DNA of 64,000 nt, taken from assembly GCA_030688225.1 (NCBI GenBank), contig JAUYIO010000021.1, forward strand, positions 12,080 through 76,079, in the 5' to 3' direction. Under the pieces are notes generated by a model. It had not been told where the DNA came from, ran no database searches, and was given only the letters and a program-made list of their open reading frames with translations. Of the stretch, positions 5,969 to 51,262 are shown in pieces. Source of the stretch: Nanobdellota archaeon. Its GTDB lineage: Archaea > Nanobdellota > Nanobdellia > Pacearchaeales > GW2011-AR1. How positions within the stretch are numbered: the stretch's first letter is position 1; the number at the start of each line of letters is the position of its first letter. Both the position numbers and the translations under genes were made by a program.

Positions 5969-6009
5969 TTTAAGATATAAATTTTTAAAAAGAATCAAAA
6001 TCTTTTGCT

Positions 6010-6342: not shown

Positions 6343-6410
6343 ACCTCTTTCTCAATTAATTTTGAGGTAAATAACCTTTAGGTTAATCTATTGTCGCAAG
6401 ACAAGCCAAG

Positions 6411-7527: not shown

Positions 7528-7530
7528 AAA

Positions 7531-9757: not shown

Positions 9758-9808
9758 TGCGAGAGAAAATGTAAAATATTTATAAAGATTATTCCTCCAG
9801 AGAATATA

Positions 9809-10624
9809 ATGGAAATAAAGAATATCCTGGAATTTTCAATTTTGAATATAGATAAACCCTCTGGGCCTACGAGTTTTGATATTTCTAATTTTGTGAGAAA
9901 AAAACTTGGATTGAGAAAAACAAGTCATTTTGGAACTCTTGATCCAAAAGTTACAGGAGTTTTACCAATTGCTTTAAACAGGGCGTGCAAACTTACAGGA
10001 TTTTTTTTAGGAGAAGATAAGGAGTATGTTGGAATTATGAGACTTCATGAAGAAGTTTCCATGGAAGAAATTAAGAAAAAAATAAAAGAGAAATTTTTAG
10101 GAAAGATAAAACAAACTCCTCCTGTAAAATCTCGTGTAAAAAGAGAAGAGAGAGAAAGAGAGATTAAAAAATTTGAGATTCTTGAGAAAGAGGGGAAAGA
10201 TGTTTTATTTCGTGTTGAATGTCAGGGAGGGACTTATATTAGGAAGTTGATTGATGATTTAGGAAAAGAATTAGGAATTGGTGCACATATGCTTGAATTG
10301 AGGAGAATTCGTGCAGGAATTTTTAAAGAGACAGATAAGGAATTTTTAAATTTATATGAATTTGAAAAAATAGTTAATGATGAAAAAGATTTGAAAAAAT
10401 TCCTGATTCCTGCTGAAGAAGCATTGAAGAAAATATTTCCTGTTATACAAGTTAAGAAAGATTCTGTAAGTGGGTTGTTGACAGGGAAACCCATTTTCAA
10501 GAAAGATATCGTGGGAAAAATGAAAGATAAATTTATTGCATTCTACAAAGAAAGATTTATAGGAGTTTACAAAAGAACTGGCGAAGTTGCAAAGCCTGAG
10601 TTTGTTTATCAGGAGATAAGGTAA
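9809..10624 (+). CDS. cbf5: H/ACA RNP pseudouridine synthase Cbf5 (TruB family)
   Basis: DKPSGPTSFD, HFGTLDPKVTGVL catalytic Asp motif, GGTYIRKL, GAHMLELRRIRAG, C-terminal PUA-like region; contains K/E-rich insertion. Confidence 0.75.
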   Translation: MEIKNILEFSILNIDKPSGPTSFDISNFVRKKLGLRKTSHFGTLDPKVTGVLPIALNRACKLTGFFLGEDKEYVGIMRLHEEVSMEEIKKKIKEKFLGKIKQTPPVKSRVKREEREREIKKFEILEKEGKDVLFRVECQGGTYIRKLIDDLGKELGIGAHMLELRRIRAGIFKETDKEFLNLYEFEKIVNDEKDLKKFLIPAEEALKKIFPVIQVKKDSVSGLLTGKPIFKKDIVGKMKDKFIAFYKERFIGVYKRTGEVAKPEFVYQEIR

Positions 10625-14891: not shown

Positions 14892-15413
14892 ATGAGAAAA
14901 TTAATATTAGGAATTTTATTTATTTTATTACTCCAAAATATCTCTGCAACCTGTGAAGACAACCAAGTTGATATAAATGCTGCTTCTTCAACAGAACTTG
15001 ACAAAATAATTTGGGTTGGTCCTTCTACTGCGGAAAAAATAATCTCTGCCAGGCCTTTTGAAAGTGTGGATGATTTAACAAAAGTGAGTGGGATTGGAGA
15101 AGTGAAAATATTGGACATAAAAGAACAAGGAATTGCCTGTGTTGGAAGTGAAACTCAAGAGGAGGAAAAAGAAAAGATAAATCTAAAAGATGTTGAGATT
15201 TATGCTGAAAAAAATTATTCAGAACAAGATAATTCTCCTCCAGAAGTAATCAACCTAAATCCAAAAACTATAAAAACAGAAAACAACACCGAGAGTTCTG
15301 ATAAAAACAAATATGCTCTTAGAGGTTTTGCATTTTTTTGTGTTTTGCTCGTGTTTTTGTTTGTTTTTAAAATAAGAAGAGACAAAGTCAATAAAAATGA
15401 ATTCAGAGATTGA
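14892..15413 (+). CDS. ComEA-like helix-hairpin-helix DNA-binding protein, secreted and C-terminally membrane-anchored
   Basis: Signal peptide; VDINAASSTELDKIIWVGPSTAEKIISARPFESVDDLTKVSGIG matches ComEA HhH; C-terminal FAFFCVLLVFLFVFKIRRDK TM plus basic tail. Confidence 0.6.
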   Translation: MRKLILGILFILLLQNISATCEDNQVDINAASSTELDKIIWVGPSTAEKIISARPFESVDDLTKVSGIGEVKILDIKEQGIACVGSETQEEEKEKINLKDVEIYAEKNYSEQDNSPPEVINLNPKTIKTENNTESSDKNKYALRGFAFFCVLLVFLFVFKIRRDKVNKNEFRD

Positions 15414-15881: not shown

Positions 15882-16802
15882 TTATTTCTTTTTCCCAAAT
15901 AAATTAACTTCAGATTTTACAGAGTAATATTTATTTCTTACAAACCAGATTATTAAGATTATTATTACAAGAAGACTCCATCCTAAAATTTTCCAAGTGG
16001 AATTTTTAGGTATTTCTTTACAAATTCCTGAACAACAAAGATTGTCTTTCCCATAAGAAGATTCTCCATCACAAATCTCCAAATTCTGGACACAAACTGA
16101 TTTATTCATCTCTGCACAAGTTTGTTTTGTTGAAACAGAAATTATCTTTTCAGACTTAGACGTGTTTATTATTTCTTCTGATTTATTCCCAGAGATATTT
16201 TGAGGGGTTGTGTTTTCTTCTTCTATTTCCTGCTCTTTTACAAAAACATAAACAGGAATTTTATATTCAAGATTTTCTGTTTTCATTTCTAATATTTGCA
16301 GTGAAGTTTGTTTTATATCCCCAATGCCAAAAGTTATCTGTCTCATTTCATTTGATTCAAAAAAAAAGGAACTTGATTTACTGCTGAAATTTGTATTTAT
16401 CAAGGTTTTTGAATTTTTGAGGTTTGTAATGTCTATTGAAAAATCCTTATCAGTTATTATAAATCCTTTATTAATTGAAAAGTCTGCTGTCTCTGAATCT
16501 ATTGTAAAATTCTTTGAATCTTCATTGATATTTATAGAATAATCATCAGGAATTTTCTCGTCTAGAGAGGCGTAAATATAATAATCATCATTTATTCTTA
16601 CAATTTTTGGAATTATTGAAGTTTGCATGTGACGCCTGAAGAAGATTACATCTTGCTCTGTTAAAGGCTGAGCAAAATCTCCTGAAACTTTTGCAATAAA
16701 ACTTTCCCCTTGACTAAAATTTGTTTTCATATCAAATTCAACAGCTGAAATAAACTGAAGTGAAAACAAAATTAATACGAATAAAATCACCACCTTTCTC
16801 AT
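15882..16802 (-). CDS. surface protein with signal peptide, 6-Cys module and C-terminal TM anchor
   Basis: N-terminal hydrophobic signal; CAEMNKSVCVQNLEICDGESSYGKDNLCCSGIC module; C-terminal LGWSLLVIIILIIWFVRNKYY. Confidence 0.45.
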   Translation of the reverse strand: MRKVVILFVLILFSLQFISAVEFDMKTNFSQGESFIAKVSGDFAQPLTEQDVIFFRRHMQTSIIPKIVRINDDYYIYASLDEKIPDDYSININEDSKNFTIDSETADFSINKGFIITDKDFSIDITNLKNSKTLINTNFSSKSSSFFFESNEMRQITFGIGDIKQTSLQILEMKTENLEYKIPVYVFVKEQEIEEENTTPQNISGNKSEEIINTSKSEKIISVSTKQTCAEMNKSVCVQNLEICDGESSYGKDNLCCSGICKEIPKNSTWKILGWSLLVIIILIIWFVRNKYYSVKSEVNLFGKKK

Positions 16803-16834: not shown

Positions 16835-18553
16835 TTATTTTCCAATCTCTTTCAATTTTTTTAAAACCTCGTCAAGTTCTTCTTTTCTTTTTGGTTGAGC
16901 CTGAGGTTTTCTTGCAGGAGATCTTTGTTGAGGAGTTGGCAAAATTCTTCTTCTAATAATTCCTCTTGGTATTTGCGAATGTTGGGGTGAAGAAGGGAAT
17001 TCGCTTGGAGGAGCTTTCTTGAACTTAGAACTTAATCTGAACCAGAATTCTTTAAATTTATTCCTGAAAATTATTCCTAATGTTGTTAAGACAATTAAAA
17101 TTAACAAAACCCAGATGTACCAATAACTCGATCCTCCCTGTGGAACACAACAGAAATCAGTGGAATAGTCACATTGGAAGTTTTTTATTTCTTCATTATC
17201 TCCGCATGAAATCTTACAAGCCCCTCCATTTATTGCGCATTCTGTTTTTGGTTGCTCTGAAGGAGTTGTGCATGAACCAAGACAACAATTAGGAGTGTCA
17301 TCTGCAGAAACAATTTTTCCGTTACATACTTCATTTGATGTGCAAATGTCTCCATTTTGTGCAGAACATGTTGGAAGAACTAAAGGAACACTACAACATT
17401 TCAAAGTTCCTGTACAAGTCCCGGTTATAATATTTCCTTCACAATCTGCAGAAGGAAGACAATAACCTCCAGACGATAAACAATCTGTTCCGTTCAAAGG
17501 TTTTAATGGCCAAACAGAATATAAAATAAATCCTGTATTTCTTATATTATCCCAACAACCATCTGTTTTTTGATTATCAATTAGCCAGTTCATTGCATTT
17601 GTTTTTGCTTCAGAAGTTTCTGGTTGCAGAGGATATAATGCTAAAGCAGTATCATATAATTTGTCTCCTGAAGAATCCCAGTATTTATTTTCTCTCTGAA
17701 GAGAAAGCAAATCTTCATAATAAGTATTTCCTGCCAACAAATACAAAAATGACTCAGGAAGGTATCTTTCATTTTTATTTGCAGAAATTATTAAGTATGG
17801 GATGTATGAAGAAGCATCAGTATTTGCTTGAGTCAGAGATAATGCTCCCCATAAAGTTCCTTCGTAATCGCAGGAATCTGTTGTTGAGAAACAATTTGAT
17901 TTTACTTTTTCAGTTATAGAAGATGATGCAGAACCAGAATTTATCTTGTCAGAAATGAAATAAGTTGGGGAATTGATGTCCTTAAAAATCATGTTCGTCT
18001 TGAATGATTTATCACAAGAAATTTTAAACTCTTTATCATAACATGTTGAGGGAACTCTCAGCCAATAATCGTCTTTATCCAAACGCAAGCATTCTCCTGC
18101 AGAAGAATCTATTTTTTTATCTTCTCCAAGATTTACTGAATAAGAAGAAGAGTCGTAAGAGATTGTGCAAGAAGTTGCTTCATTGCTGTCAATTTGCAAA
18201 TACCATAAAACATCTGTAGAAATTTTTGTCTGGGACAATAGCCATGATTGTGCTTTTTCTGTTGAAGTTCCAACACTATTTAGAGCCAATATTGACTGAG
18301 CTGTTTGTTTTATCGTGCATCCTGATTTGGGCCAGCATTCTGCATTATTTTGTGAGTCTGTTAAAAGTTCTCCCTCACATTTTTGAACTCCTAGCAAAGA
18401 AAAAATTTTTTCCTCTGTTGTCAAACTTGAACAAGTATTTTTTGCTACCTGATTTTCAAGACATTGGACAGCCTTTTCAACTTCTGCCTGCTGTGAAGAA
18501 ACTATAGGGAAAATTAGCAAAATTAAAACTAAAAATATTATTCCTCTTCTCAT
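16835..18553 (-). CDS. large surface protein with alpha/alpha-toroid (prenyltransferase/terpene-cyclase-like) repeats, three 6-Cys modules, TM and basic cytoplasmic tail
   Basis: Signal peptide; repeats of the QxxDGxW kind (DNQKTDGCWDN, LWGALSL, ALALYPL); three tandem C-x5-7-C...CC...C modules before TM WYIWVLLILIVLTTLGIIF. Confidence 0.45.
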   Translation of the reverse strand: MRRGIIFLVLILLIFPIVSSQQAEVEKAVQCLENQVAKNTCSSLTTEEKIFSLLGVQKCEGELLTDSQNNAECWPKSGCTIKQTAQSILALNSVGTSTEKAQSWLLSQTKISTDVLWYLQIDSNEATSCTISYDSSSYSVNLGEDKKIDSSAGECLRLDKDDYWLRVPSTCYDKEFKISCDKSFKTNMIFKDINSPTYFISDKINSGSASSSITEKVKSNCFSTTDSCDYEGTLWGALSLTQANTDASSYIPYLIISANKNERYLPESFLYLLAGNTYYEDLLSLQRENKYWDSSGDKLYDTALALYPLQPETSEAKTNAMNWLIDNQKTDGCWDNIRNTGFILYSVWPLKPLNGTDCLSSGGYCLPSADCEGNIITGTCTGTLKCCSVPLVLPTCSAQNGDICTSNEVCNGKIVSADDTPNCCLGSCTTPSEQPKTECAINGGACKISCGDNEEIKNFQCDYSTDFCCVPQGGSSYWYIWVLLILIVLTTLGIIFRNKFKEFWFRLSSKFKKAPPSEFPSSPQHSQIPRGIIRRRILPTPQQRSPARKPQAQPKRKEELDEVLKKLKEIGK

Positions 18554-20720: not shown

Positions 20721-21497
20721 ATGCAAATAAAAGAGGATAAGAATGGGCAAGTTACAATTTTTATTATTGTTGCAGTCGTGATTATTGCGATAGGTGTTGC
20801 GGCATATTTTGTTTATCCGAAAGTCAAAACTACTGAAACTTTTGATTCAAAAAATCCTTCTGCATTTATTCAAAGTTGCTTGGAAAGTGAATTGAGGAAT
20901 AATGTTGAATTAATTTCTTCTCAAGGAGGGAGTTTAAATCCAGGAAATTATATTTTATATGATAATTCAAAAGTTGAATATTTATGTTATACAAATCAAG
21001 ATTATCAAACCTGCGTCATGCAACAGCCTTTATTAAAAGAACATATTGAATCTGAAATTAAGAACAGTATAGAAGTTTCTGCAAAAGATTGCTTCACATC
21101 TTTAGTGAATAGTTATGAAAAAATTGGGGAGAATGTTAATTTGGAAGAAGGAAATACTGATGTTGAGCTGATTCCTAAAAAAATTATCGTGACTTTCAAC
21201 AAAGTTTTAACCTTGACCGATGGAAACTCAGAAAGATATGAAAACTTTAAGATTAATCTTGATAATAATCTTTATGAATTGGTGAGTATTACAGATAGCA
21301 TCTTGGAATGGGAGGCACGTTATGGCGACGCTGATTCAAGTGGTTATATGGATTATTATCATTGGCTAAAAGTTGAAAAAGAAAAAAGAGATGATGGAAG
21401 CAAAATTTATATCTTAACAGATAAAGATAAAGGAAATAAATTTCAATTTGCTTCCAGAAGTATTGTGTGGCCTTCTGGGTATGGAGAGGTTATATAA
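20721..21497 (+). CDS. class III (prepilin-type) signal peptide protein
   Basis: KNG-QVTIFIIVAVVIIAIGVAAYF: basic residue, Gly, then Q at +1 and a hydrophobic stretch. Confidence 0.4.
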   Translation: MQIKEDKNGQVTIFIIVAVVIIAIGVAAYFVYPKVKTTETFDSKNPSAFIQSCLESELRNNVELISSQGGSLNPGNYILYDNSKVEYLCYTNQDYQTCVMQQPLLKEHIESEIKNSIEVSAKDCFTSLVNSYEKIGENVNLEEGNTDVELIPKKIIVTFNKVLTLTDGNSERYENFKINLDNNLYELVSITDSILEWEARYGDADSSGYMDYYHWLKVEKEKRDDGSKIYILTDKDKGNKFQFASRSIVWPSGYGEVI

Positions 21498-21500
21498 AAA

Positions 21501-23021
21501 ATGGGTAAAAAAATTTTAATTCTGGCAATTGGAATGTTTTTAATATTTAGCAGTTTTGTTTTTTTAATTCAAAATGTTTCTGCTGCAAGTTTATATTGCT
21601 GTGAAAAAACTTTAAGTGGTGCGTGGTGTCAAAACGCTCCAAAAGATCAGTGCGATACTGACAACGGGCTTAATGTTGCTGCGACTTCATGCGATGCAAC
21701 TTCTTTTTGTAAACTTGGAACATGCATAGATAATCAAGGGGCATGTAAGATAAATACTGCTCAAACAACATGCAGGCAAAATGGAGGCTACTGGGCAGAA
21801 GGAAAACCAGAAAATATCCCTCAATGTCAGAAAGGATGTTGTCTTGTAGAAGGACAAGGGCCTTCTTTCATTGAACAAGCAAGATGCACGAGTTATTCTT
21901 CTCTGTATGGCGCTCAAATAGAATTTAGAGGAGATATTAAAAATTCAGAGTTGTGCTCTGCAAGTGCGACGTCAAACGTAAAAGGAGCATGTGTGTTGGA
22001 AGAAGAACTTGGTAAAAGAAATTGTAAATTCTTGACACAGAGAGAATGTGTAAATGCAAAAGGGAGTTTTAATGAAAATGTTTTATGTACTGCAACATGG
22101 TTAAATACTTCTTGTGTAAAGACAAAAGAAACAACTTGCTTTGATGAGAAAGTTTATTTTAAAGATAATTGTGGAAATTTAGCAAATATTTATGATGCTT
22201 CAAAATACGACGACCAAGATTATTGGAACATTGTAATTGCTCCTGAAAATAGTTGTGGTTTTGACGATTTAAGTGGAAATGCAAATTCTCCAAGCTGCGG
22301 AAATTGTGATTATCATTCTGGAAGTGCCTGTAAAATGGCTGTAAGGGGGCAAGACGCAACTCCTACAATTGGGAACAATATTTGTAGAGATTTATCTTGC
22401 AAGTACGAAGGAGAAACTTATCAGCAAGGAGAAAAATGGTGTGTAACAAATACCGAGAACTCTAATCTTCAGAATAATCCTGGTGGCGAGAGTTGGGTTT
22501 TAGAGTGTAGGGATGGGGAAGTTCTTCCAGAATTGTGTGGTGATGGGCCAGGAGCCAGAGACAAAATATGCGTTCAGGAAGAATTATCAAACGGATTCAA
22601 AAGTGCAAACTGTGTTGCAAATAATTGGCAGGAATGCGTTTTTCAAGACAATGAAGAAGATTGTTTGATTGAAGAGTTAGATTGTAAATGGATTAAAGAT
22701 TATAGTTTTGGAGAGTATAATCCAAACAATGAAGGAGTTTGCGTTCCAAGATATTCTCCAGGATTTACTTTTTGGAACCCCGAAGAAAAAACTAGAGATA
22801 TTTGTTCTCAGGGAACTGTTACATGTTCTGTAACTTATGAAAAAGGATTAGGTGGAAAATGGGAAGCTAAAACAAATGCAGAATGTGATCCTTCTAATCA
22901 GAATTATCAAAGTTGGCTAAATAAAATGGAAGGCGTTTGTGTGGCTCTCGGAGATTGTGGAAGCAGTGTCAACTATAGAGGACAAAAAGGTTTCAACGAA
23001 TTAAAAGCGACAAAAGTATAA
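21501..23021 (+). CDS. secreted cysteine-rich protein
   Basis: Sec-type signal peptide ending VSA-A; more than 50 Cys in repeated C-x-C / CC patterns. Confidence 0.4.
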   Translation: MGKKILILAIGMFLIFSSFVFLIQNVSAASLYCCEKTLSGAWCQNAPKDQCDTDNGLNVAATSCDATSFCKLGTCIDNQGACKINTAQTTCRQNGGYWAEGKPENIPQCQKGCCLVEGQGPSFIEQARCTSYSSLYGAQIEFRGDIKNSELCSASATSNVKGACVLEEELGKRNCKFLTQRECVNAKGSFNENVLCTATWLNTSCVKTKETTCFDEKVYFKDNCGNLANIYDASKYDDQDYWNIVIAPENSCGFDDLSGNANSPSCGNCDYHSGSACKMAVRGQDATPTIGNNICRDLSCKYEGETYQQGEKWCVTNTENSNLQNNPGGESWVLECRDGEVLPELCGDGPGARDKICVQEELSNGFKSANCVANNWQECVFQDNEEDCLIEELDCKWIKDYSFGEYNPNNEGVCVPRYSPGFTFWNPEEKTRDICSQGTVTCSVTYEKGLGGKWEAKTNAECDPSNQNYQSWLNKMEGVCVALGDCGSSVNYRGQKGFNELKATKV

Positions 23022-23022
23022 A

Positions 23023-25065
23023 ATGAATACATCAGGAAAAATTGCGTTTTTTGAGATTTTTATTTTATTAATTGGGATTGTGGGGATTTCTTGGAGTATT
23101 GGAAGTGAGATAAAGGTTGTTAAGGGGGAGGATTTTTTTGTTTTTAATCAATTCACAGGAAAAGTAGAAAATCTTGGTTCTTCTTCTAATCCTATCCCTG
23201 CTACAGCTAAATCTCCTTTTTCACTTTGGGGGAAGATTAAAGATTTATTTGGATTTGGCGGGGAAGAGACAGCTAAAGCTGTAACTGGAAAGATGGCTTC
23301 TGTTTGGAAATCTGCAGAAACTATTGGAAGAAATGCAGGGATTGCTTATGGGGTTTATTATGGTTTAAAATTAGGGCTTGATGCTTTCGGAGTTGGAGAA
23401 GGAACTGCTGAAGCAACTGCAATAGCTGGAAGAAATGCTTATTTTATTGGCAAAACAACTTATGATTTGTTATCAACAGGAACAGGAAAAGCTTTGTTAT
23501 CAAAAATTGGATTACATGTTAGTGCAGGAACTGTTGCACTCCCTGTTAGCATAATTGTTTTTTACATTTCATACAAAGAAAAGAAAACAGCTACAATTAC
23601 TTTTGAATGTAAACCGTGGCAAGCAGCGACAGGAGGAAATAAATGTGAAGAATGTAATGAACAACTCCTTGGATGCAACGAATATCAGTGTAAGAGTTTA
23701 GGTAGATCATGCGAATTAATCAATAAAGGAACTGACAGAGAAATGTGTGCTGATTCAAATAAAAATGATGTAAGTCCCCCAGTGATAGAAATTTCTGAAG
23801 GTTATCTATTAGAAGATTATGAATATACTTCTCCTACTTCAACAGGAGTTAAAATTGAATATACTAAATCCAGCGACGGGTGCATTCCTTTCTTCAGACC
23901 ATTTAGTTTTGGATTTACCACAGATGAGCCTGCATATTGTAAAATAGATTATCAAAGAAAAGAAAATTTTGAAGAGATGGGATATGATTTTGGGGGAACA
24001 AATAATCTAGAGTATAATCACACACATACTTTGGGTTTGCCCGGAAAAGTTTCTTATGAAGCAGAAAACATTACTCTCCCTGATGGATTTGGGAATTATA
24101 ATCTGTATGTAAGATGCCAAGATGCAAAACCAAATACGAATTCTGCAGATTTTGTTTTCAAATTCTGCATTGATAATGGTCCTGATATCTACAAGCCAGA
24201 GATTAAGGGAACAAGTATACAAGATGGGATGCCTGTCGGTTTCGGTGTACAAAAAACATCATTAAATCTATATACAAATGAACCTGCGAGTTGCAAATGG
24301 AGTACAAGAGATCAAGCATATGAAAATATGGAGCATGAGATGGAATGTCCTACTAGTATTAGTGAAATCAACACACAAATGACCTATACTTGCGAAACAG
24401 AATTGGTTGATTTAAAAGACAAGGAAGACAGCGTGTTTTATTTCAGATGCCAAGATATTTCTCCTGCAAAAAATACAATGGAAATTTCCCATAGATTAAC
24501 ATTAAAAGGAAGTCAGCCGCTTGTAATTGATTCTGTCGGACCAGAAGGGACAATTAAAGATTCAACAGAATTTGTGAGAGTTAGTTTAACTGCAAAAACA
24601 TCTGCAGGATTTAATGAAGGTAATTCAAAATGTTCTTACAGCGAAGATGGTGAAAAATATGTTGAATTTTTTGAAACAGGTTCTCACACACATTCCCAGG
24701 ATTTGGTTTTGACAAAAGGAATTTACAAATACTTTATACAATGTACTGATTTAGCAGGAAATTCTGAAACAAAAACAATCGCATTTGAAGTTGAATCTGA
24801 TCCTTATGCTCCAAGCATTGTGAGAGTTTACAAAGACGGAAGCAATTTGAAATTGATAACTGATGAAGAAGCAGAATGTGTTTATACTACTTTTGGTTGC
24901 AGTTATTCTTTTGCAGATGGAACAACCATAACAACTAGCGACGGTAAAAATCACTTTACTTCATGGAATCCTAAAGCAAATTTCTATATTAAATGTAAAG
25001 ACACTTATGGAAATGAACCTTTCCCAAATGAATGCAGCATAACTGTCAAACCATTGAAGATTTAA
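23023..25065 (+). CDS. large membrane-anchored surface protein with repeated Cys-containing beta-domain modules
   Basis: N-terminal TM, second TM near residue 180, then repeated YxxRCxD / FxCxD...GN modules; 680 aa. Confidence 0.4.
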   Translation: MNTSGKIAFFEIFILLIGIVGISWSIGSEIKVVKGEDFFVFNQFTGKVENLGSSSNPIPATAKSPFSLWGKIKDLFGFGGEETAKAVTGKMASVWKSAETIGRNAGIAYGVYYGLKLGLDAFGVGEGTAEATAIAGRNAYFIGKTTYDLLSTGTGKALLSKIGLHVSAGTVALPVSIIVFYISYKEKKTATITFECKPWQAATGGNKCEECNEQLLGCNEYQCKSLGRSCELINKGTDREMCADSNKNDVSPPVIEISEGYLLEDYEYTSPTSTGVKIEYTKSSDGCIPFFRPFSFGFTTDEPAYCKIDYQRKENFEEMGYDFGGTNNLEYNHTHTLGLPGKVSYEAENITLPDGFGNYNLYVRCQDAKPNTNSADFVFKFCIDNGPDIYKPEIKGTSIQDGMPVGFGVQKTSLNLYTNEPASCKWSTRDQAYENMEHEMECPTSISEINTQMTYTCETELVDLKDKEDSVFYFRCQDISPAKNTMEISHRLTLKGSQPLVIDSVGPEGTIKDSTEFVRVSLTAKTSAGFNEGNSKCSYSEDGEKYVEFFETGSHTHSQDLVLTKGIYKYFIQCTDLAGNSETKTIAFEVESDPYAPSIVRVYKDGSNLKLITDEEAECVYTTFGCSYSFADGTTITTSDGKNHFTSWNPKANFYIKCKDTYGNEPFPNECSITVKPLKI

Positions 25066-25100
25066 AAAAACTTTATTAAGGATATTTCTTTTATTATCTC

Positions 25101-25511
25101 ATGAAGAAAAGAGGTGCATTAAATTTGTCTTTTGGAATGATTTTTTCAATTTTCCTGATAATCTTTTTCCTGGGGTTTGCATTTTATATCATTCCGAAAT
25201 TTCTTGGATTCCAAGATGATGCGAAAATAGGAAGCTTTGTTAATGATTTTCAAAATGACGTGAATAAAATGTGGAAATCAACAAAAGGTTCCCAAGTTGT
25301 TGAATATAGCTTGCCAAAAAAAGTATCAGAAATTTGTTTTGATGAAAAATCAAGAATTTATTTCAACCCATTTGGAAGCGGAGGAAATTTTGATTATTCT
25401 GAAACAGAACACTTGGATGTGCAATCTGATTCCTGTTTTGAAGTTGTTGATGGAAAAATAAGTATGACAATTAAAAAGGATTTTGGAGAGGTTTTGGTGA
25501 GGGTTGAATGA
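25101..25511 (+). CDS. type IV pilin-like protein (class III signal peptide)
   Basis: MKKRG-ALNLSFGMIFSIFLIIFFLGFAFYII. Confidence 0.45.
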   Translation: MKKRGALNLSFGMIFSIFLIIFFLGFAFYIIPKFLGFQDDAKIGSFVNDFQNDVNKMWKSTKGSQVVEYSLPKKVSEICFDEKSRIYFNPFGSGGNFDYSETEHLDVQSDSCFEVVDGKISMTIKKDFGEVLVRVE

Positions 25512-25530
25512 AAATTAGAAAAGTTGTAAA

Positions 25531-26448
25531 ATGAAAAAGAAAGGTGCTTTACAAATTTCATTTGCATGGATATTTGCACTAATTGTTGGAGTGTTTATTT
25601 TATTTCTTGCGATTTATGCAGTTACAAAATTCATAGGAAACGAGCAAGAAATTAGCGACGCTGAAATTGCAAAACAGATAACTGTTTTGATTAACCCTCT
25701 TGAAACAGGATTTGAAAGTGGGAAAGTTACTTCATTAATTCTGCCGGTAGAAACAAGAATATATAACCGGTGTGATAGCATTGGTTCTTTCGGAACACAA
25801 TCCATTAAAATTGCTCAAAAAAGTTTTGGAAAATGGACAGATACAAACACAGATATTGAATCACTCAACAAATATATTTTCTCAGAAGAATATGCAGAAG
25901 GAAAAAAACTCTATTTATTCTCAAAACCATTTGAATTTCCCTTTAAAGTTTCTGATTTGATTTATTTAACTTCTTCTGAAAAAGAATACTGTTTTGTAAA
26001 TCCTCCAAAAGATGTAAAAGATGAACTTTCTGAGTTGAATCAAGAAAATTTAATCTTTGAATGCTCTTCAAACAGCATTAAGATTTGTTTTGAAGAAAAA
26101 ACAGGATGCGATATAATTGTGAATAAAAATGCAAAATATGTTGAGAAAGATAATACAAAAATTTATTTTGAAGGAGATGCTTTGATGTATGCAGGAATTT
26201 TCTCTGACAAAGATATCTATGAGTGTCAAGTGAAAAGGTTAATGCAAAAAGTTGGGAATCTTGTGGATATTTATCAAGAAAAAGAAATACTTGTCTCAGG
26301 AATTTGTGATGCAGAATTATATGAAGAATTATCTCAACTGAAAAGTTTAGTAGTGGAGTTAAACAATTCTGATGAAATTTATAAGATAAATAATTTGGCT
26401 GAAGATATTCAAAATAAAAATGAAAGGGGTACTTGTGCATTATGGTGA
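25531..26448 (+). CDS. type IV pilin-like protein (class III signal peptide), paralogous N-terminus
   Basis: MKKKG-ALQISFAWIFALIVGVFILFLAIYAV, near-identical architecture to 25101 ORF. Confidence 0.45.
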   Translation: MKKKGALQISFAWIFALIVGVFILFLAIYAVTKFIGNEQEISDAEIAKQITVLINPLETGFESGKVTSLILPVETRIYNRCDSIGSFGTQSIKIAQKSFGKWTDTNTDIESLNKYIFSEEYAEGKKLYLFSKPFEFPFKVSDLIYLTSSEKEYCFVNPPKDVKDELSELNQENLIFECSSNSIKICFEEKTGCDIIVNKNAKYVEKDNTKIYFEGDALMYAGIFSDKDIYECQVKRLMQKVGNLVDIYQEKEILVSGICDAELYEELSQLKSLVVELNNSDEIYKINNLAEDIQNKNERGTCALW

Positions 26449-26455
26449 AGAAAAA

Positions 26456-26968
26456 ATGAAAAAGGCTCAGATGAAAATTCAACAAATGGCATTTGTATTA
26501 ATTGCAATTACTTTGTTTTTCGTATTGACAGGAATTTTTGTTTTTGCTTTTAAATTTTCAGGATTAAAACAATCTGCAACAGATTTGGAAGAAGAAAATG
26601 CATTCTTACTTTCAACAAAACTAATGAATTCTCCTGAATTCTCTTGTGGAGAATCTTTTGGAGATACAAGAATAAATTGCGTTGACGAAGACAAGTTAAT
26701 GGCTCTCAAAGAAAACACTGCTTATACTAATTCAAATTTTTGGGGGGCCTCAAACATAGAAGTCAGAAAGATTTATCCTGAAGAATCAGAAAAAGTTTGT
26801 AATTCTGAAAACTATCCTGACTGTAACACTATAAAAATTTATAATCAAGAAGTAAGTGGTTTTGATGTTTCTAATTTTGTATCTTTATGCAGAAAAGCTT
26901 TATCGGATGGGAAAGTATATACTAAATGCGAACTTGCTAAAATAATAGTAAGTTATGAGAAAAAATGA
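26456..26968 (+). CDS. pilin-like protein
   Basis: MKKA-QMKIQQMAFVLIAITLFFVL; start moved to internal ATG to avoid overlap with the upstream gene. Confidence 0.35.
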   Translation: MKKAQMKIQQMAFVLIAITLFFVLTGIFVFAFKFSGLKQSATDLEEENAFLLSTKLMNSPEFSCGESFGDTRINCVDEDKLMALKENTAYTNSNFWGASNIEVRKIYPEESEKVCNSENYPDCNTIKIYNQEVSGFDVSNFVSLCRKALSDGKVYTKCELAKIIVSYEKK

Positions 26969-27459
26969 CGAATAAAATCAGAAAAATAAAAAAGGCACAA
27001 GAAGAGATGGTGGGATTTGCAATAATCATAATTTTGGTTTCAATAATTCTTGTTGTTTTTTTGGGGTTGAGTTTAGGAAACAAAAACGAAATAACAACAG
27101 AGAGTTACGAAACAAATAGTTTTGTTCATTCAACACTTCAATATACTACTGGATGCAGTGATAGTTATGAATATCTCTCAATTCAAAAATTAATTATCGC
27201 GTGCTCAAATAATGAAATTTGCTCAGAGGGAAATAATTCTTGTGAAATTCTTGAGAATAATTTGGGAGAGATTCTTGAAGCAAGTTGGAATGTGGGAGAA
27301 GGGAGTAAAAATAAAGGATATTCATTAAACATAAGTTCTGATGATGGAGAAATCTTCTTTGAAAAAGAAGGAAATGAAACATTGAACTCAAGAGCAGGGT
27401 TCCAGGCTTTCTCAAGAGAAGGAAATGACTTTGAAGTTTTCTTCACTATTTACTCTTAA
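26965..27459 (+). CDS. pilin-like protein
   Basis: IRKIKKA-QEEMVGFAIIIILVSIILVVFLGL. Confidence 0.35.
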   Translation: MTNKIRKIKKAQEEMVGFAIIIILVSIILVVFLGLSLGNKNEITTESYETNSFVHSTLQYTTGCSDSYEYLSIQKLIIACSNNEICSEGNNSCEILENNLGEILEASWNVGEGSKNKGYSLNISSDDGEIFFEKEGNETLNSRAGFQAFSREGNDFEVFFTIYS

Positions 27460-27809
27460 AATTTTAGATTTATTGAAATAGTGTCAGAAGTTAGTTTTGG
27501 TTTGTGTCTGATTCTATTTTTAGTAGTTTCTTCTGTTATTTCCACAAACCCAAATCTTTTTAGAAGTTTAATGTCATCTTGCACAGATTTAAATCCTCTT
27601 CCAAGTTTTTTTGCAAGATCATAAATTGATTGGGGATTCTCATGTTTGATTACATGCAAAATTCTTGCTTTCTCATTGCTCAATAATTGTCTTAATAATT
27701 GTATTCCTGAAAAATCATAGTCTTCTTTACTGGATTTTGATTTTTTAAATATGTTAAAGGCTCCTTTTGATTCAGTAATTGTTATCTCTCTTATTTTTGT
27801 TGTCGGCAT
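27456..27809 (-). CDS. winged helix-turn-helix transcriptional regulator
   Basis: SIYDLAKKLGRGFKSVQDDIKLLKRFGFVEI HTH plus wing; 117 aa. Confidence 0.55.
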   Translation of the reverse strand: MPTTKIREITITESKGAFNIFKKSKSSKEDYDFSGIQLLRQLLSNEKARILHVIKHENPQSIYDLAKKLGRGFKSVQDDIKLLKRFGFVEITEETTKNRIRHKPKLTSDTISINLKF

Positions 27810-27856: not shown

Positions 27857-28192
27857 CTGTTTTTATTTATAATATATTATATTTTAAAACATCTATCTTA
27901 ATAAATGTTTGTTTTTTAATAAAAAATAAAGTAGTTGTAATATGTATTAATAATATAGTGACAGCATAATCTTTATAAATAAAACCTATAAAATAAGGGT
28001 TTTTATGTGTGAAAAAGGAAAAATAGGGGAGAAGCTTTTTAAAGAAACTCTGATTCAGTATTATACACCTTACGGTGTTCTATAGGGGATAAACCTAGAG
28101 ATATTTTAAGGAAATAGTGTTCCCTATCGCTATTGACTTAAGATAAGTTGTCATAGACAACAATAATATAGGTGAAAGGAGGTATAAAAGAG

Positions 28193-30724
28193 ATGAGATT
28201 TAATTTCAAAAAAATAGTAGCTTTAGGAACTAGTGCTTTGATGACTGTATCTGGTATTGGATTTGCTGCTGCTGCAAATTTCCCTGCTCCTTTTGTGAGT
28301 GGAGGAAGTGCAAATGTGGCAATTGTTTATGGTACTGGAACAGGAGTATCATCATTAGACCTTGTTGAAGCAAGTAACATACAAGCTAACTTACAAACAT
28401 TCATGACTGGAACAAGTGGAGGAACTTCATCTTCTGTTGAAGGTGGAGAAGGAGTAATTATTCAAAAATCAAGTGATAATTGGAATATAAGAGACTCTAT
28501 GTCTAGCTTAGTTTCTACTCTTGACTATGAAGATTTACCAACTCTTCTTGCAAAAGGAACATATGTTGCAGATGACAACGATGAGTTTAAATATGAACAA
28601 AAAATAACTCTTGGGGGAGTCACACTGGAACATTTTAAAGATTCTGATTATGAAGATGAAATGGGTCTGGACACTCCAACACCTGTAGTTGGTTTAAAAA
28701 TTAATTCAAGTGAATTTGTATTAAACTATACACTTGATTTTACTACAGATGCTGAATCAGATATTGTAAGTTCTGAACTTGATGATATTGAAGGAAGTGA
28801 CATACCTTTGTTTGGAAAAACATATTATGTATCTGACTTTGATTCAACTGGAGGAGTTGTTGCTTGTGGTGCTACGTACAATTGTCTTGGTACATTAACT
28901 CTTCTTGATTCTGCTGAAATAGGAAGTGTTTCAGAAGGAGAAACAACAACTATTGCAGGGCATGATGTAAGTATTCAGTTTATGGATAACGACGAAGTAG
29001 TTTTCACTGTTGATGGACAAAGAGCTCCTGCAAGTGGAAAACTTTCTGCTGGAGGTTCTTACAAACTTAATGACGGCTCTTACATTGGAGTAAGAGATAT
29101 CAGCAAGTTAGAAGTTTCAGGGGAAATCGGTACTGCTTCATTTAGCATTGGAACTGGTAAAATAGAAATAGTTTCTGGTTCTGAAGTAGAGCTTAATGAT
29201 GAAGCTATTGACGGAGTAAAAGCATGGGTTTATAATTCAAGTGGAGGAACATCAACTCTTGCGAAGATGGACAAGATTGTTATAGAATGGAAAGCTGATG
29301 AAGAATCATTCATAACTCCTGACAATGATGTTCTTGTCCCAGGATTTGGTGGATTAAAATTCACTATGAATGAACTTGTTAGAAACACTGAAGAAGTTGT
29401 TAAAGTTGAAAAAGACGGAAGTAAAGCTATGTCTTTAACTCTTCCTTTGAAAGATGGAAGCGTTACGATACCTATTTTATTTGCTAATTCAACAGGGAAC
29501 TATCTTGGTATTGGTAAAGATAACAATACAAGATTGGCAACATCAGGGAATAGTACAATAAAAATCTATGAAAAGCATAGTGGTGCAGATTGGGACAAAT
29601 ACTTTGTTGCTACGTATAACACTTCAGCACAAGGAGAATCTTATGTATTAAGAGTTAATACTGAAGAAGTTACCGGATACAATCAAACCAGAATTGACAA
29701 ACTTACATCCTCTGGTTGGGTGAATGGTATTTGTGATGACAAAAGAGCTACAGATGAGTGTTCAATTGGAAATGTTGTTCTTACTATTAATGCAGTTACA
29801 TATACATCGGGTGGAAACAGAACTGTTGATATTGAAGGTGGAACAAATGTAGGTTTCCACACAGCAATAACTGCTGGAGGATTATCTGTATTCTTGCCTT
29901 ACACTATTAATGCAAGTACTGCTGCAACAGCTGCAGGTGCTATTAATGTAACACAAAATGAAACAGCTGGTGATGATGGGCTTAAAGATCTTTGGAATGG
30001 TGCAACAGCAGGACATGGTTATGACACCTTCTGGTTGTCTTTTGATGGTGAAGATAAAGACGACACTATATCTGCTGGAACAGGATTCAATCTAACTATT
30101 GACGACACTGGCTCTAGTGACTACGATTTGCAAGTTTCACAGATAGATGGTACTGGAACTGGAGGTTCAAGAGGAGAGGAAATTGGAGAAACTGATGTGT
30201 ATGAAACATACATAGCTGACGATGTTGCTCCAAGAATATTGCATAAAGTCCCTTCAAGTGGTGCAGATTCAGCAGAAGTATATTATCCAACAGGTAACTC
30301 TGAAACATATGCAGAGATATATGTTGCTGAACAAGGTTCAACAATTTCAAGCACAACAACGCCAAGCGGAACAACTTCACTTGGAGAGGTGTTAGTTAAA
30401 GATAGCGAAGTAAGCTCTGTAAGTTCAAAGAACTTGATTGTAGTTGGTGGAAGCTGTATTAATTCAGTTGCTGCAAACTTAGTTGGTGGTGCTTACTGTG
30501 GTTCTGCATTCACAGAATCAACAGGTGTAGGCTCAGGACAATTCCTAATAAAGAGCTACAGTGGCAAATATGCGTCTGGAAAGATTGCATTATTAGTTGC
30601 TGGTTACGAAGTTGCTGATACTGTAAATGCTGCTAAATACCTAAGAACTCAAACTGTTGATACTGGCAAAGAGTATAAAGGAACATCTGCAACAAGCGCT
30701 GAGCTTGTTACAACAGAAGCATAA
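28193..30724 (+). CDS. candidate S-layer / major surface (glyco)protein
   Basis: GGAGGT RBS 10 nt upstream of ATG 28193; signal peptide MRFNFKKIVALGTSALMTVSGIGFAAA-ANFPAPF; Thr/Ser/Gly-rich, many N-x-S/T sites, no TM; 380-bp AT-rich upstream region and strong T-tract terminator downstream. Confidence 0.45.
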   Translation: MRFNFKKIVALGTSALMTVSGIGFAAAANFPAPFVSGGSANVAIVYGTGTGVSSLDLVEASNIQANLQTFMTGTSGGTSSSVEGGEGVIIQKSSDNWNIRDSMSSLVSTLDYEDLPTLLAKGTYVADDNDEFKYEQKITLGGVTLEHFKDSDYEDEMGLDTPTPVVGLKINSSEFVLNYTLDFTTDAESDIVSSELDDIEGSDIPLFGKTYYVSDFDSTGGVVACGATYNCLGTLTLLDSAEIGSVSEGETTTIAGHDVSIQFMDNDEVVFTVDGQRAPASGKLSAGGSYKLNDGSYIGVRDISKLEVSGEIGTASFSIGTGKIEIVSGSEVELNDEAIDGVKAWVYNSSGGTSTLAKMDKIVIEWKADEESFITPDNDVLVPGFGGLKFTMNELVRNTEEVVKVEKDGSKAMSLTLPLKDGSVTIPILFANSTGNYLGIGKDNNTRLATSGNSTIKIYEKHSGADWDKYFVATYNTSAQGESYVLRVNTEEVTGYNQTRIDKLTSSGWVNGICDDKRATDECSIGNVVLTINAVTYTSGGNRTVDIEGGTNVGFHTAITAGGLSVFLPYTINASTAATAAGAINVTQNETAGDDGLKDLWNGATAGHGYDTFWLSFDGEDKDDTISAGTGFNLTIDDTGSSDYDLQVSQIDGTGTGGSRGEEIGETDVYETYIADDVAPRILHKVPSSGADSAEVYYPTGNSETYAEIYVAEQGSTISSTTTPSGTTSLGEVLVKDSEVSSVSSKNLIVVGGSCINSVAANLVGGAYCGSAFTESTGVGSGQFLIKSYSGKYASGKIALLVAGYEVADTVNAAKYLRTQTVDTGKEYKGTSATSAELVTTEA

Positions 30725-32485: not shown

Positions 32486-32952
32486 AACTTTTTTACGCGC
32501 TTCTTCTTACAATAATGCCTGTTACAGAATTGAGAGTTGGGCTTCCCTTGGCGATATTATATGCAAGAGAAAACGGAATTCCAATTTATCTAATCTTTTT
32601 TCTTGTAGTTCTCTTAAATGTTCTTGTAATTTTTTTCATTTTTTATTTTTTAGACAACATACATCACGTTTTCATGAAGAGAGGATTTTACAGAAAATCT
32701 TTTGGGAATTATCTTAAAAGAAAAAGGGAGAAGATAGACAAATTTGAAAGAAGATATTCTGAGTTCGGATTTATCGCTTTAGTATTATTTGTTGCTATCC
32801 CTCTTCCAGGAACAGGTGCATGGACAGGGACATTTGTATCATGGATTTTGGGGTTAGATAGAAAAAAAAGTGTTTTGGCAATAGCTCTTGGTGTTTTAAT
32901 TGCAGGTATCCTCGTAATGTTGGGGACTTTAGGAGTTATTGGATTATTTTAG
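32476..32952 (+). CDS. small multi-TM membrane protein (putative small multidrug export family, COG2426-like)
   Basis: N-terminal PVTELRVGLPLAIL resembles ELRGAIP motif of Sm_multidrug_ex family; 4 TM. Confidence 0.4.
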   Translation: MVIKLFYALLLTIMPVTELRVGLPLAILYARENGIPIYLIFFLVVLLNVLVIFFIFYFLDNIHHVFMKRGFYRKSFGNYLKRKREKIDKFERRYSEFGFIALVLFVAIPLPGTGAWTGTFVSWILGLDRKKSVLAIALGVLIAGILVMLGTLGVIGLF

Positions 32953-33456
32953 TTTCTTAAATAGAAATCTTAAATCAGAATATATCGGAATTTTTTTTAT
33001 CTTAAAATATTTAACTTCAAAAAACCAAATACCGACGACAAAAACGATACTCCCAACATACCAAAATAATTTATGAGTTATATCAAACCATTGGGAATTT
33101 GATAAGAATAATATGCTCAGCAAAAATATTCTTATTATATTTATTACAAGAAAGGCTAAAAATGCGAATGCAAGCATCTTAAATCTTTTTTTTAATTTAA
33201 CGTCAGGAACAGAAAGATTGAATATTAATAGGAGATAATATGCAGAACCAGCTATGCATGCTCCAATCAGTTCTATTGAGCGATATCCAATCATAATAAA
33301 GTCTCCTCTTAGGGAAACATCATAGAACAAGTTAAGCAAAAAATAAACAGGGTAAAGAGTTAATGGTGTGAATATTAGATATAAAAGATAAAAATTAGGA
33401 AAGGCTACGATTATTAAAATTATATACCTTAAAAAAATATCAAAAATTTTATTCAT
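32944..33456 (-). CDS. exosortase/archaeosortase-like polytopic membrane protein (short)
   Basis: IELIGACIAGSAYYLLL (Cys in ACxG context as in exosortase active site), NIIRIFLL conserved Arg; 5-6 TM, 170 aa. Confidence 0.3.
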   Translation of the reverse strand: MNKIFDIFLRYIILIIVAFPNFYLLYLIFTPLTLYPVYFLLNLFYDVSLRGDFIMIGYRSIELIGACIAGSAYYLLLIFNLSVPDVKLKKRFKMLAFAFLAFLVINIIRIFLLSILFLSNSQWFDITHKLFWYVGSIVFVVGIWFFEVKYFKIKKIPIYSDLRFLFKKLK

Positions 33457-34292: not shown

Positions 34293-36050
34293 TTATTTAG
34301 CAACTCTTACTGCTATAACAATTATTATTATAACTAAGATAACATTCAATGCTCCAATTAACCATAAATACCAGTTGCTTCCGAAAGAGAATCCACCAAA
34401 TCCAGATTGTTCAATTGAAACTGAAACAGGTTGTTTCATTACTAAATCAGTTCCTGAAAGAACTTCTATGTTGAATGTTTGATCTCCTGAAGCGTCATTG
34501 TTAACTTTGAATGTTAATAGAGCTTCTTTTGATTCTCCTGAATTCACTATTAATGTGATTGGGTCAATACTTGATAATGATGCCCATGAAGAATAATCTG
34601 CTGCATTCAAAGTGTAAGTTGCTGAAGTAGTTCCTGTATTTGTTATTGTTGTTTTTATTACCAAGTCATCTCCTGCTTTTCCTCCTGATTGCAAACTTGC
34701 AGAAACTAATGCTTTTTGACTAACTCCACAATTTCCTTCTACTACAAGAGGTGCTGTGAATTTTGAATCTTCGTCATCAAAATCATTTTCATAAATATCT
34801 CCATCTTCGTCAAATACTGTAAATTCTAAGTAATATGTTTTTTCAGATGCATCTTCAGGTATCTGAACTGTGAAAGTAAGCTTTTCATTATCAAATTCTT
34901 TTATTCTTGAAAATTCTGTTCTTTCATCAATTCCCAATTCTGTGTTTCTTAATAAAACAAGAACATCATCTTGTTCATCTGAACCTATATTCCAAACATC
35001 TGCCAATATTTGAACATCCATTCCACATTGAACTGTTTCTGGGAAATCAATATTGTTAATTATTACAAAATCTGTTTCTTCTTCAATTGAAACATCTTCA
35101 GAATCATAATGACAACTTTTTTCTCCATCGTTTGAAGAATCTCTATCGTCAATTGTTCCTGTTGCTCTTACAACAATCTTATAATTATTTCCAACTATCT
35201 CATCAAGATCCATATCAAGATCCTTTTCTCTTAATTGGAATGTGACTATAAAAGTGTCATCTTTTCCATCTTTGAGGTTGAATTCTTTTATCTCATCCAT
35301 CTCAAGAACCCAATTATTAAGGTTAGAATCTGCAATGCCCCATTCTAAAGAAATATCATCAACATCATAATTTCCATCATTTTCAACTCTTACTTCTATT
35401 TCTACTTCATCCAGTGGAAGCCATTCTTCATCTTTTCCGTAACCTTCTATAACAGTTATGTCTCTTATATCTACTTTTAATTCTCCAGGATTTTGAGTAA
35501 CTCCAGAATCATATGCACAGAAATCTGCTGTTGAGGAAGTTGCTGTTCCTTCTATGACAACATTATCTAATCTACAGAATTCAGCTGTAGCATCTGTTGA
35601 ACATTCTATTTTTATTCTGAATCCAGCATTATTATTTGCTGAAGAAGGCAAATTAAATGTCTTTGAAACAAATGAAGCATCATTAGGTAAATCAGGACTG
35701 TCTGCTGTAACTCCAACAACTTCTTCTAAATTAGTGTATGTGCTTCCATCAACAGACCAAGATAATTTAAAATTATTGTCAGTTTCCCAACCATTTCCTA
35801 ATTGTCTGTCATATTTAACAATGATAGTTTCATAACCAGAAGTACTAATTGTTCTCTCAAGAGTAGCGTTATCAACATTTGTGGATTCTGCATAAGTTCC
35901 TGCATTTGACCAGTTGCTTGTTGTCCAACCAGTTAAATCTCCATCATCAAAATTATCAGAGAAAACTGTTGCAGCGCTTGCGAAATTCAAAACTAAAACT
36001 AATGCGAAGATGCTTGCGATAGACAAACAAAATGTTTTGTTTTTTATCAT
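34293..36050 (-). CDS. large secreted surface protein with C-terminal TM anchor plus basic tail
   Basis: Signal peptide FCLSIASIFALVLVLNFASA; acidic Asp/Thr-rich beta-type domains; C-terminus GFGGFSFGSNWYLWLIGALNVILVIIIIVIAVRVAK. Confidence 0.45.
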   Translation of the reverse strand: MIKNKTFCLSIASIFALVLVLNFASAATVFSDNFDDGDLTGWTTSNWSNAGTYAESTNVDNATLERTISTSGYETIIVKYDRQLGNGWETDNNFKLSWSVDGSTYTNLEEVVGVTADSPDLPNDASFVSKTFNLPSSANNNAGFRIKIECSTDATAEFCRLDNVVIEGTATSSTADFCAYDSGVTQNPGELKVDIRDITVIEGYGKDEEWLPLDEVEIEVRVENDGNYDVDDISLEWGIADSNLNNWVLEMDEIKEFNLKDGKDDTFIVTFQLREKDLDMDLDEIVGNNYKIVVRATGTIDDRDSSNDGEKSCHYDSEDVSIEEETDFVIINNIDFPETVQCGMDVQILADVWNIGSDEQDDVLVLLRNTELGIDERTEFSRIKEFDNEKLTFTVQIPEDASEKTYYLEFTVFDEDGDIYENDFDDEDSKFTAPLVVEGNCGVSQKALVSASLQSGGKAGDDLVIKTTITNTGTTSATYTLNAADYSSWASLSSIDPITLIVNSGESKEALLTFKVNNDASGDQTFNIEVLSGTDLVMKQPVSVSIEQSGFGGFSFGSNWYLWLIGALNVILVIIIIVIAVRVAK

Positions 36051-51236: not shown

Positions 51237-51262
51237 AACTATTTGATTAATTCTAATGATAT

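Follow-up and report, generated by a model that had tools for sequence, protein, structure and literature searches.

A conserved operon for pilin-like, cysteine-rich and Ig-like surface proteins beside an S-layer gene in Pacearchaeota and related DPANN archaea

Introduction

The defining trait of prepilin-peptidase substrates is a cut site that lies N-terminal to the hydrophobic domain (PMC6098224). Among the described systems that come closest to the locus treated here, the Epd pilins of Methanococcus maripaludis, substrates of EppA and part of the archaeal type IV filament (TFF) "System 1", have a leader that ends in Gly and is followed by Gln at +1 (PMC3875500); System 1 has also been reported in some DPANN archaea. 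The pilus genes of M. maripaludis are distributed over at least four loci, its minor pilins are essential, and its pilin genes, like those of H. volcanii, stand apart from the motor genes (PMC3875500). A pilin operon that carries no ATPase gene is not unusual in archaea. Here we describe an operon of seven genes at positions 20721-27459 of a 64,000-nucleotide stretch (hereafter the window) from a Nanobdellota archaeon of the Pacearchaeales (NCBI assembly GCA_030688225.1, contig JAUYIO010000021.1). Its products are pilin-like, cysteine-rich and immunoglobulin (Ig)-like proteins.

With the Epd/EppA system of M. maripaludis the operon shares a short basic leader, a small residue at the end of that leader, Gln at +1, the hydrophobic helix, the presence of several dissimilar pilin-like genes in one operon, and the separation of these genes from those for the ATPase and platform (PMC3875500). 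However, Glu at +5 is missing, the residue at -1 is G, A or S and not Gly alone, there is no match to PF04021/DUF361 in a Pfam scan of the seven products, no eppA gene stands in the operon, and the globular domains are much larger and rich in disulfides. The operon also adds a polytopic Ig-domain protein and a protein with 41 Cys. A second likeness, in operon logic only, is to the bacterial GspH-I-J-K and FimU-PilVWX-PilY1 sets. Here too, the genes for four or five differing pilin-like proteins stand together, away from the motor genes and beside the gene for a large surface protein; one of the products is large (g5, with 305 amino acids [aa], comparable to GspK). One copy per subunit, a stoichiometry that we infer for the present case, would suggest a capped stub or tip. 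Yet there is no similarity to GspH/I/J/K or FimU/PilVWX in sequence (Protein Data Bank [PDB] profiles, E<0.01) or in the fold of g5, the envelope is archaeal, and the large protein g3 appears to be embedded in the membrane, not bound at a tip. The pilin-like proteins of the Sulfolobus bindosome (BasABC) are likewise thought to form a surface complex near the surface layer (S-layer) and no long filament (10.64898/2026.04.22.720090), but the Bas locus holds its own ATPase and platform genes, BasEF, and the present operon has no substrate-binding domains. Finally, the membrane-anchored Ig "S-layer-like" proteins of arCOG02884/arCOG02487 resemble g3 in having two to four transmembrane (TM) segments and extracellular Ig-like domains and in being encoded beside S-layer-like genes (PMC5898192), and the DPANN-specific dark-matter cluster cls.004306 (NEQ255) is described as adjoining S-layer-like proteins (PMC5898192; PMC6393860). 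The architecture of g3 is similar to that of the COG4743/PF07760 group, but g3 has no PF07760/DUF1616 match, and the MoxR ATPase, vWA and DUF4350 genes of the arCOG02884/arCOG02487 envelope system are absent here. We found no description of the operon in the literature; the nearest published notes concern divergent pilins in DPANN and a DPANN-specific secreted protein beside S-layer-like genes (PMC6393860).

Few uncultured archaea of groundwater, lakes and the ocean are as abundant as Pacearchaeota and Woesearchaeota, which are thought to live attached to other cells; the attachment apparatus is not known for either. The operon is a good target in this regard, as it is clade-wide, lies beside an S-layer gene and encodes only proteins without a known family, at least one of which (g5) has a confidently predicted fold that lacks a solved relative. 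It offers concrete targets for cryo-electron tomography, metaproteomics and heterologous cleavage tests and bears on a dispute in the literature as to whether these archaea use type IV filament machinery. We tentatively favor the reading that the operon encodes one heteromeric, membrane-anchored cell-envelope complex that is pilin-like and of a pseudopilus type. An adhesive role for such a complex is plausible, and host attachment would be one form that it might take.

Results and Discussion

Organization of the operon

The seven open reading frames (ORFs), which we call g1 to g7 in order, encode proteins of 258 (20721..21497), 506 (21501..23021), 680 (23023..25065), 136 (25101..25511), 305 (25531..26448), 170 (26456..26968, with an alternative start at 26420) and 164 aa (26965..27459). 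All are present on the + strand; the initial annotation of this DNA had them as co-directional. Successive genes are separated by 3, 1, 35, 19 and 7 nt, and the last two overlap by 4 nt; since no spacing exceeds 35 nt, an operon is likely. The window has a GC content of about 32% and contains archaeal housekeeping genes of the DPANN type, among them those for PCNA, the small primase subunit, class I lysyl-tRNA synthetase (LysRS), form III RuBisCO, an AMP-phosphorylase-like enzyme, FtsZ and SepF. The g3 product is listed at NCBI as "hypothetical protein Q8P15_01185 [Nanoarchaeota archaeon]", and the records of its relatives carry the labels Pacearchaeota, Woesearchaeota or Nanoarchaeota.

Pilin-like N-termini in five products

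The N-termini of g1 (KNG/QVTIFIIVAVV, the slash marking the putative cut), g4 (MKKRG/ALNLSFGMIF), g5 (MKKKG/ALQISFAWIF), g6 (MKKA/QMKIQQMAFVLIA) and g7 (KKA/QEEMVGFAIIII) are pilin-like and agree with those first read (KNG-QVTIFII, MKKRG-ALNLSF, MKKKG-ALQISF, MKKA-QMKIQQ and KKA-QEEMVGF). In each of these window proteins, a putative leader of 4-11 aa precedes a hydrophobic stretch of at least 20 residues, the hydropathy peaking at 2.8-3.3. To place the motif in context, we used 63-78 homologues per family, with 229 other ORFs that have an N-terminal TM segment as controls. A [KR][GAS] pair at most 12 residues ahead of the helix occurs in 85-94% of the members of the g1 and g4-g7 families versus 28% of the controls, and [KR][GAS]Q is found in 56-83% of g1, g4, g6 and g7 members versus 4% of the controls. 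The fuller motif is likewise scarce (0-14%) in a comparison set made up of two neighboring single-pass proteins, d2 and d3, the Sec-type g2 and the S-layer protein. The +1 position is Gln in 71/79 g1, 48/64 g4, 52/61 g6 and 54/59 g7 members, and is F, Y or A, not Gln, in the g5 family. In the alignments of g1 (Q10), g6 and g7 this Gln is invariant; further, Q5, K7 and Q10 are invariant in g6, as are Q12, E13, E14, G17 and F18 in g7. The N-terminal plans of the families can be written as [KR][GAS]Q-VTIFIIIA for g1, [KR][GA]Q-MK-LSFGMIFSI for g4, [KR][GA]-[YFA]L[QE]-ISFAWLFAIIVG for g5, [KR][AGS]Q-[LM]KIQQ-MAFMLIAV for g6 and [KR][AGS]Q-EE-MVGFALIII for g7.

Comparison of the family profiles by hhalign points to kinship of the N-terminal regions between families (g4-g5, 96%; g1-g7, 91%), and the globular parts of the same families gave no relatedness to one another. 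Related N-terminal regions joined to unrelated globular parts are the pattern of pilins. The heads contain even numbers of Cys (4, 2, 8, 6 and 4 in g1, g4, g5, g6 and g7, respectively), each conserved in nearly 100% of the family members, and are therefore most readily seen as extracellular and disulfide bonded. None of the seven products has a hydrophobic segment at its C-terminus, as would be seen in a C-terminal sorting signal of the PACE-CTERM type. The homologues of g3, too, mostly have a pilin-like N-terminus, of the form [KR]G-xxALSQ/E. Conserved N-termini of the class III, pilin-like type are thus supported by the alignments for five, arguably six, of the products.

g2 and g3 as a likely functional unit

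Scans with Pfam and NCBIfam returned no family for any of g1 to g7, g3 having only a sub-threshold match to Big_13. The initial annotation took the 506-aa g2 to be secreted and Cys-rich; this is borne out by a Sec-type signal peptide and 41 Cys. g2 is without a membrane anchor, and none of its 993 homologues has a Pfam domain or a name. The two hydrophobic segments claimed for the 680-aa g3 are likewise apparent in its hydropathy profile (residues 1-34 and 157-185), and its repeated Cys-bearing modules turn out to be four Ig-like domains (~250-680). An AlphaFold2 (AF2) model of g3 (pLDDT 78) has a helix at 5-27, a disordered linker, helices at 91-183, a Cys knot (196-242) and four β-sandwich domains, each with Cys pairs; 20 Cys are invariant in the family. 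Structure prediction had been suggested as a check on this protein, and in Foldseek searches the sandwich domains of the model match strings of Ig, cadherin and FN3 domains of adhesion ectodomains.

In 29 loci, g2 and g3 are fused into proteins of ~1250 aa that align first with g2 (~4-495) and then with g3 (~170-680). Therefore, g2 and g3 can be held to act as one unit. Examples are found at 2794-6492 of locus L002 and 7418-11575 of L076, in addition to 27 other loci, with sizes of ~1250-1400 aa; in L076 the fusion gene stands in the place of separate g2 and g3 genes. Each fusion gene is preceded by a second copy of g1, so that g1 plus g2-g3 looks like a duplicable module. Within the fusion proteins, the hydrophobic region is bordered on one side by the g2 part with its many Cys and on the other by the Ig part with its disulfides.

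Rare g3 homologues have a LysM domain (residues 44-73 of P0058) or a pretoxin-HINT/PT-HINT domain (residues 220-334 of P0029) in the variable linker past the first helix. The ligand of LysM would be peptidoglycan or chitin from another organism. With LysM present in 1 of 91 ORFs from related loci, the inserts were too rare and were dropped as a line of evidence. As to topology, both flanks of the hydrophobic region of g3 look extracellular on account of the layout of the fusions together with the LysM and PT-HINT inserts in the linker, which requires an even number of membrane passes between them. At least two hydrophobic helices lie in this region in most g3 homologues. Thus, g3 is most likely, as judged from these sequence features, a polytopic membrane protein with an N-terminal helix and a TM hairpin (~91-185 in the window protein). 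A protein kept in the membrane in this way cannot be carried on the tip of a pilus. The initial idea of a locus of tip adhesins is at odds with this topology and with the single unit formed by g2 and g3 in the 29 fusions. The extracellular and Cys-rich nature of both proteins, and the adhesin-like nature of g3 by virtue of its four Ig-like domains, are supported.

A proposed envelope complex

Under the reading that we favor, the complex would be spread over the large DPANN clade whose members are labeled Pacearchaeota, Woesearchaeota or Nanoarchaeota. The products of g1, g4, g5, g6 and g7 would be its five bitopic subunits, with N-termini of the Methanococcus EppA/Epd type; all of these families but g5 have Gln at +1. 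The cut past the G, A or S residue would be made by a prepilin peptidase from another locus, and the freed hydrophobic helices may then bundle into a short pseudopilus-like stalk. This stalk would contain one copy of each subunit, after the manner of a minor-pilin set and not of a homopolymer, and would adjoin the membrane part of g3 or rest on it. The polytopic g3 would raise a pillar of four Ig-like domains, on which the Sec-secreted, 41-Cys g2 would dock. The disulfide-bonded heads and the g2-g3 ectodomain might in turn extend to or through the S-layer and bind a partner cell or surface.

Several observations weigh against this reading, beginning with those on the N-termini. The FlaFind-type class III pattern is [KRDE][GA][ALIFQMVED][ILMVTAS]x3. 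This strict pattern, which the initial annotation had proposed as a check, fits none of the seven window proteins, and among the families only g1 fits (54/78 members, against 2/72 for g4, none for g5, g6 and g7, and 4/229 in the background). The Glu at +5 of EppA substrates is absent, its place being taken by F in g1, S in g4, Q in g6 and V in g7, although g7 has Glu at +2 and +3; fixed polar residues stand directly past the putative cut in g4, g6 and g7. Neither the seven proteins nor 49 homologues of g1 match any Pfam or NCBIfam pilin or class III signal model at E<=1, and sequence profile searches of the PDB with g1, g3, g4, g5, g6 and g7 gave nothing at E<0.01. The model of g5 (pLDDT 84, pTM 0.80) combines a 44-residue N-terminal helix (11-54), a β-sheet and a C-terminal helical bundle, and a search with this predicted fold against solved structures matches no pilin and no solved fold. 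Finally, the median identity of g1-g7 to the window in 27 complete loci is 41-55%, which, with PCNA at 70% and primase at 64%, is higher than expected for host-binding adhesins. The claim of class III signals made at the outset is accordingly upheld by the conserved motif, at 85-94% versus 28% of controls, and falls short in the fit to the strict FlaFind-type pattern and to curated pilin models.

The same negative results bear on an alternative by which the basic-small-Gln motif is only a signal for topology or packing where a TM helix ends on the cytoplasmic side; the N-termini would be uncleaved signal anchors and the seven proteins unrelated to type IV filaments. It would account for the lack of pilin model and pilin fold matches, for the failure of the strict class III pattern in g4-g7 and for the absence of filament machinery from the scanned loci. 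However, G, A and S alternate at one position past K/R in five families with unrelated globular parts, the Gln at +1 is invariant, and [KR][GAS]Q is rare in the neighboring anchors d2 (2/40) and d3 (5/37). Topology alone hardly explains a motif of this kind, and we regard the alternative as improbable.

The search for filament machinery

The remaining points against the favored complex come from the machinery that it would need. The T2SSE ATPase, the T2SSF platform protein and the A24 peptidase were not found by Pfam scans of most of the larger window ORFs, and the other window ORFs, covered by hydropathy and motif scans only, contain no T2SSE or A24 candidate. A motif scan of all ORFs in the 85 loci examined for gene order and in the window, in which we looked for a T2SSE-type Walker A motif or for the A24 GxGD motif together with at least four TM segments, gave chance matches in g3-like proteins only. 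In more than 100 related loci, the surrounding 10 kb hold no gene for a prepilin peptidase, an ATPase or a platform protein. The absence of an assembly ATPase or platform gene near the operon, which the initial annotation had read from the window, thus extends to its relatives. The literature is divided on whether the machinery is to be expected. Some DPANN have FlaI/TadC loci whose pilins are divergent (PMC6393860), and FlaI/J/K have been reported in most Woesearchaeota metagenome-assembled genomes (PMC11606122). Against this, FlaI/J/K are annotated in Nanoarchaeota and Woesearchaeota and are not listed for Pacearchaeota (PMC8407392), and, according to one preprint, parts of the type IV pilus are missing from DPANN.

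If the machinery is encoded elsewhere, the operon could belong to a true pilus, much as the initial annotation had it, with g4-g7 (and g1) as minor pilins that prime the filament, g2-g3 as an accessory base or adhesin, and the major pilin, ATPase, platform and peptidase at other loci. The N-terminal evidence speaks for this as much as for the favored complex, and the dispersed loci and essential minor pilins of M. maripaludis offer a precedent (PMC3875500). Four dissimilar pilin-like genes in a row also parallel the well-established GspHIJK and FimU-PilVWX sets. A candidate for the major pilin is found at the start of the window in an ORF of 188 aa (479-1045, +; alternative start 494), which has an archaellin- or pilin-like N-terminus (KNRKA/AMEMSVGTIVTIV or KNRKA/AMEMSVGTIVTIVLLMTVLILGIF). 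This ORF has no Pfam or NCBIfam match, is highly conserved among the inspected loci and occurs in three tandem copies in L103. In all 11 inspectable loci of a set of 17 metagenome loci, it adjoins the gene for cysteinyl-tRNA synthetase (CysRS), usually with RuBisCO and often past a P-type ATPase. No filament ATPase is encoded nearby in these 11 loci, nor did their longer stretches yield a T2SSE-type Walker A motif. It may be the major pilin of the organism, and its presence implies that the genome holds further pilin-like substrates. Nevertheless, the operon itself has no gene of major-pilin size, the motor was not found in the window or the related loci, the sizes of up to 305 aa and the g5 fold are unlike those of known minor pilins, and pili are not known from the clade. 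In our estimate, a true pilus locus is unlikely.

A different consequence follows if the clade lacks a type IV motor and perhaps a classical prepilin peptidase as well. In that event, the operon would represent a motor-independent use of pilin-type N-termini, in the form of a self-assembled, fixed envelope organelle that serves as an S-layer pillar or as a host-contact device. Membrane contact with a partner cell could in that case involve both the g3 hairpin, which is hydrophobic, and the 41-Cys g2. We consider this quite unlikely; if true, it would mean that a large DPANN clade shares an archaeal surface machine of a new kind.

Conservation of the operon and its S-layer neighbor

A pattern scan of one genome per species uncovered 582 confirmed g3-like stretches in species-representative genomes, with two copies in many of these genomes, and a profile search gave 416 clusters at 50% identity (E<=1e-30). 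The g5 family alone has 1187 homologues at 90% clustering, all unnamed. We examined 85 loci for gene order. The order g1-g7 recurs in every locus whose contig extends far enough (~60 of 80 genome loci) and is followed by a winged helix-turn-helix (wHTH) gene on the opposite strand and an S-layer gene. The partner genes were found among the 85 loci as follows: g4 in 73, g5 in 71, g6 in 65, g7 in 63, the wHTH gene in 60 and the S-layer gene in 59. The genes for PCNA and primase are likewise kept beside the operon. In a divergent locus (L104), the operon, wHTH and S-layer genes are retained and the downstream genes differ. Of two distant g3 homologues, one lies in the same operon and the other in a truncated version of the cluster; neither has a motor nearby. 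In one marine lineage (L002/L003), two pairs of MNT and HEPN genes of the toxin-antitoxin type (7297-7918 and 9377-10008) lie inside the operon, at the g1/g2 and g2/g3 junctions. A viral or mobile origin of the operon was considered and rejected, as no relative was found on IMG/VR viral contigs.

In the window, the wHTH gene (27456..27809, -) encodes a member of the HVO_A0114 family (PF25212, E=8.5e-17), is convergent with g7 and is divergent from the S-layer gene. It follows g7 in the 60 loci, and does so also where the other flanks differ (L104). The initial annotation had the operon regulated next to this gene; the adjacency holds, but the wHTH gene converges on g7 and faces the promoter region of the S-layer gene, not that of the operon. 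The S-layer protein gene (28172..30724, +; likely ATG at 28193) is identified by PF05124 S_layer_C (E=2.5e-10) and is a constant neighbor of the operon. Its product has no TM segment at the C-terminus and no sorting signal or membrane anchor.

This neighbor raises the possibility that the operon supplies a structural part of the envelope, an anchor or pillar that fastens the S-layer protein, which has no anchor of its own, to the membrane or keeps the two at a distance, with the helices and the g3 hairpin as its foot and the Ig string as its pillar. Adhesion would have no part in such a structure, which might need no motor. The S-layer protein has neither a TM segment nor a sorting signal, g3 remains in the membrane, and the operon, wHTH and S-layer genes are adjacent in ~95% of the loci that reach that far, also where other flanks differ. 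A single-copy, clade-wide and moderately conserved operon is in keeping with a structural part, as is the fact that motor genes were not seen nearby. S-layer-like Ig proteins also accompany archaeal type IV filament loci, according to a preprint (10.64898/2026.04.22.720090). However, synteny in the clade is generally high, as the adjacency of PCNA and primase attests, so that adjacency to the S-layer gene is weak evidence of shared function. Moreover, the S-layer protein evolves far faster than the operon proteins (0.22 versus 0.7-1.1 bits per residue), with no sign of co-variation, and the duplicated g1 plus g2-g3 modules and the rare LysM inserts are more in line with variable binding than with a fixed pillar. 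We hold this alternative to be possible though rather unlikely.

Other genes of the envelope neighborhood

Further surface-protein genes lie on both sides of the operon. Some 5-8 kb downstream are a pacearchaeosortase gene (32944-33456, -; NF033505, 221 bits), which is syntenic downstream of the operon in 33 loci, and a gene for a PACE-CTERM putative S-layer protein (34293-36050, -; NF033506, 397 bits), which is syntenic in 21. The syntenic sortase and PACE-CTERM protein thus make the region a cell-envelope supercluster with two S-layer-type proteins. Farther on, 39467-41422 (-) encodes a large surface protein of 651 aa with He_PIG Ig and CBM96/disaggregatase-related domains. On the upstream side, a 572-aa secreted protein (16835-18553, -) has 30 Cys, weak squalene-cyclase/prenyltransferase-like repeats, a C-terminal TM segment and a basic cytoplasmic tail; together with a 306-aa anchored protein (15882-16802), it is syntenic upstream of the operon in about a dozen loci.

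Also upstream, by about 5 kb, a ComEA-like helix-hairpin-helix (HhH) protein (14892-15413, +) has a signal peptide as well as a TM segment at its C-terminus, features that suggest DNA binding outside the cell. A DNA-uptake pseudopilus that includes this secreted and anchored protein would be in line with reports of competence genes in ultra-small prokaryotes (PMC9938205). Yet the gene matched an ORF in only one related locus, weakly (E=1.7e-6), and no ComEC or ATPase gene is found nearby. We view this alternative as very improbable, and the ComEA link was rejected as a leading explanation because the gene is not syntenic.

Two further observations concern the wider window. ARAGORN calls a tRNA-Ser(tga) at 51262-51343 (+), which is absent from the Rfam results at the gathering threshold. 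The presence of both a form III RuBisCO large subunit (2476-3903, +) and the AMP-phosphorylase-like gene (53077-54561, -; glycosyl transferase family 3 with PYNP_C) points to the archaeal route of AMP salvage.

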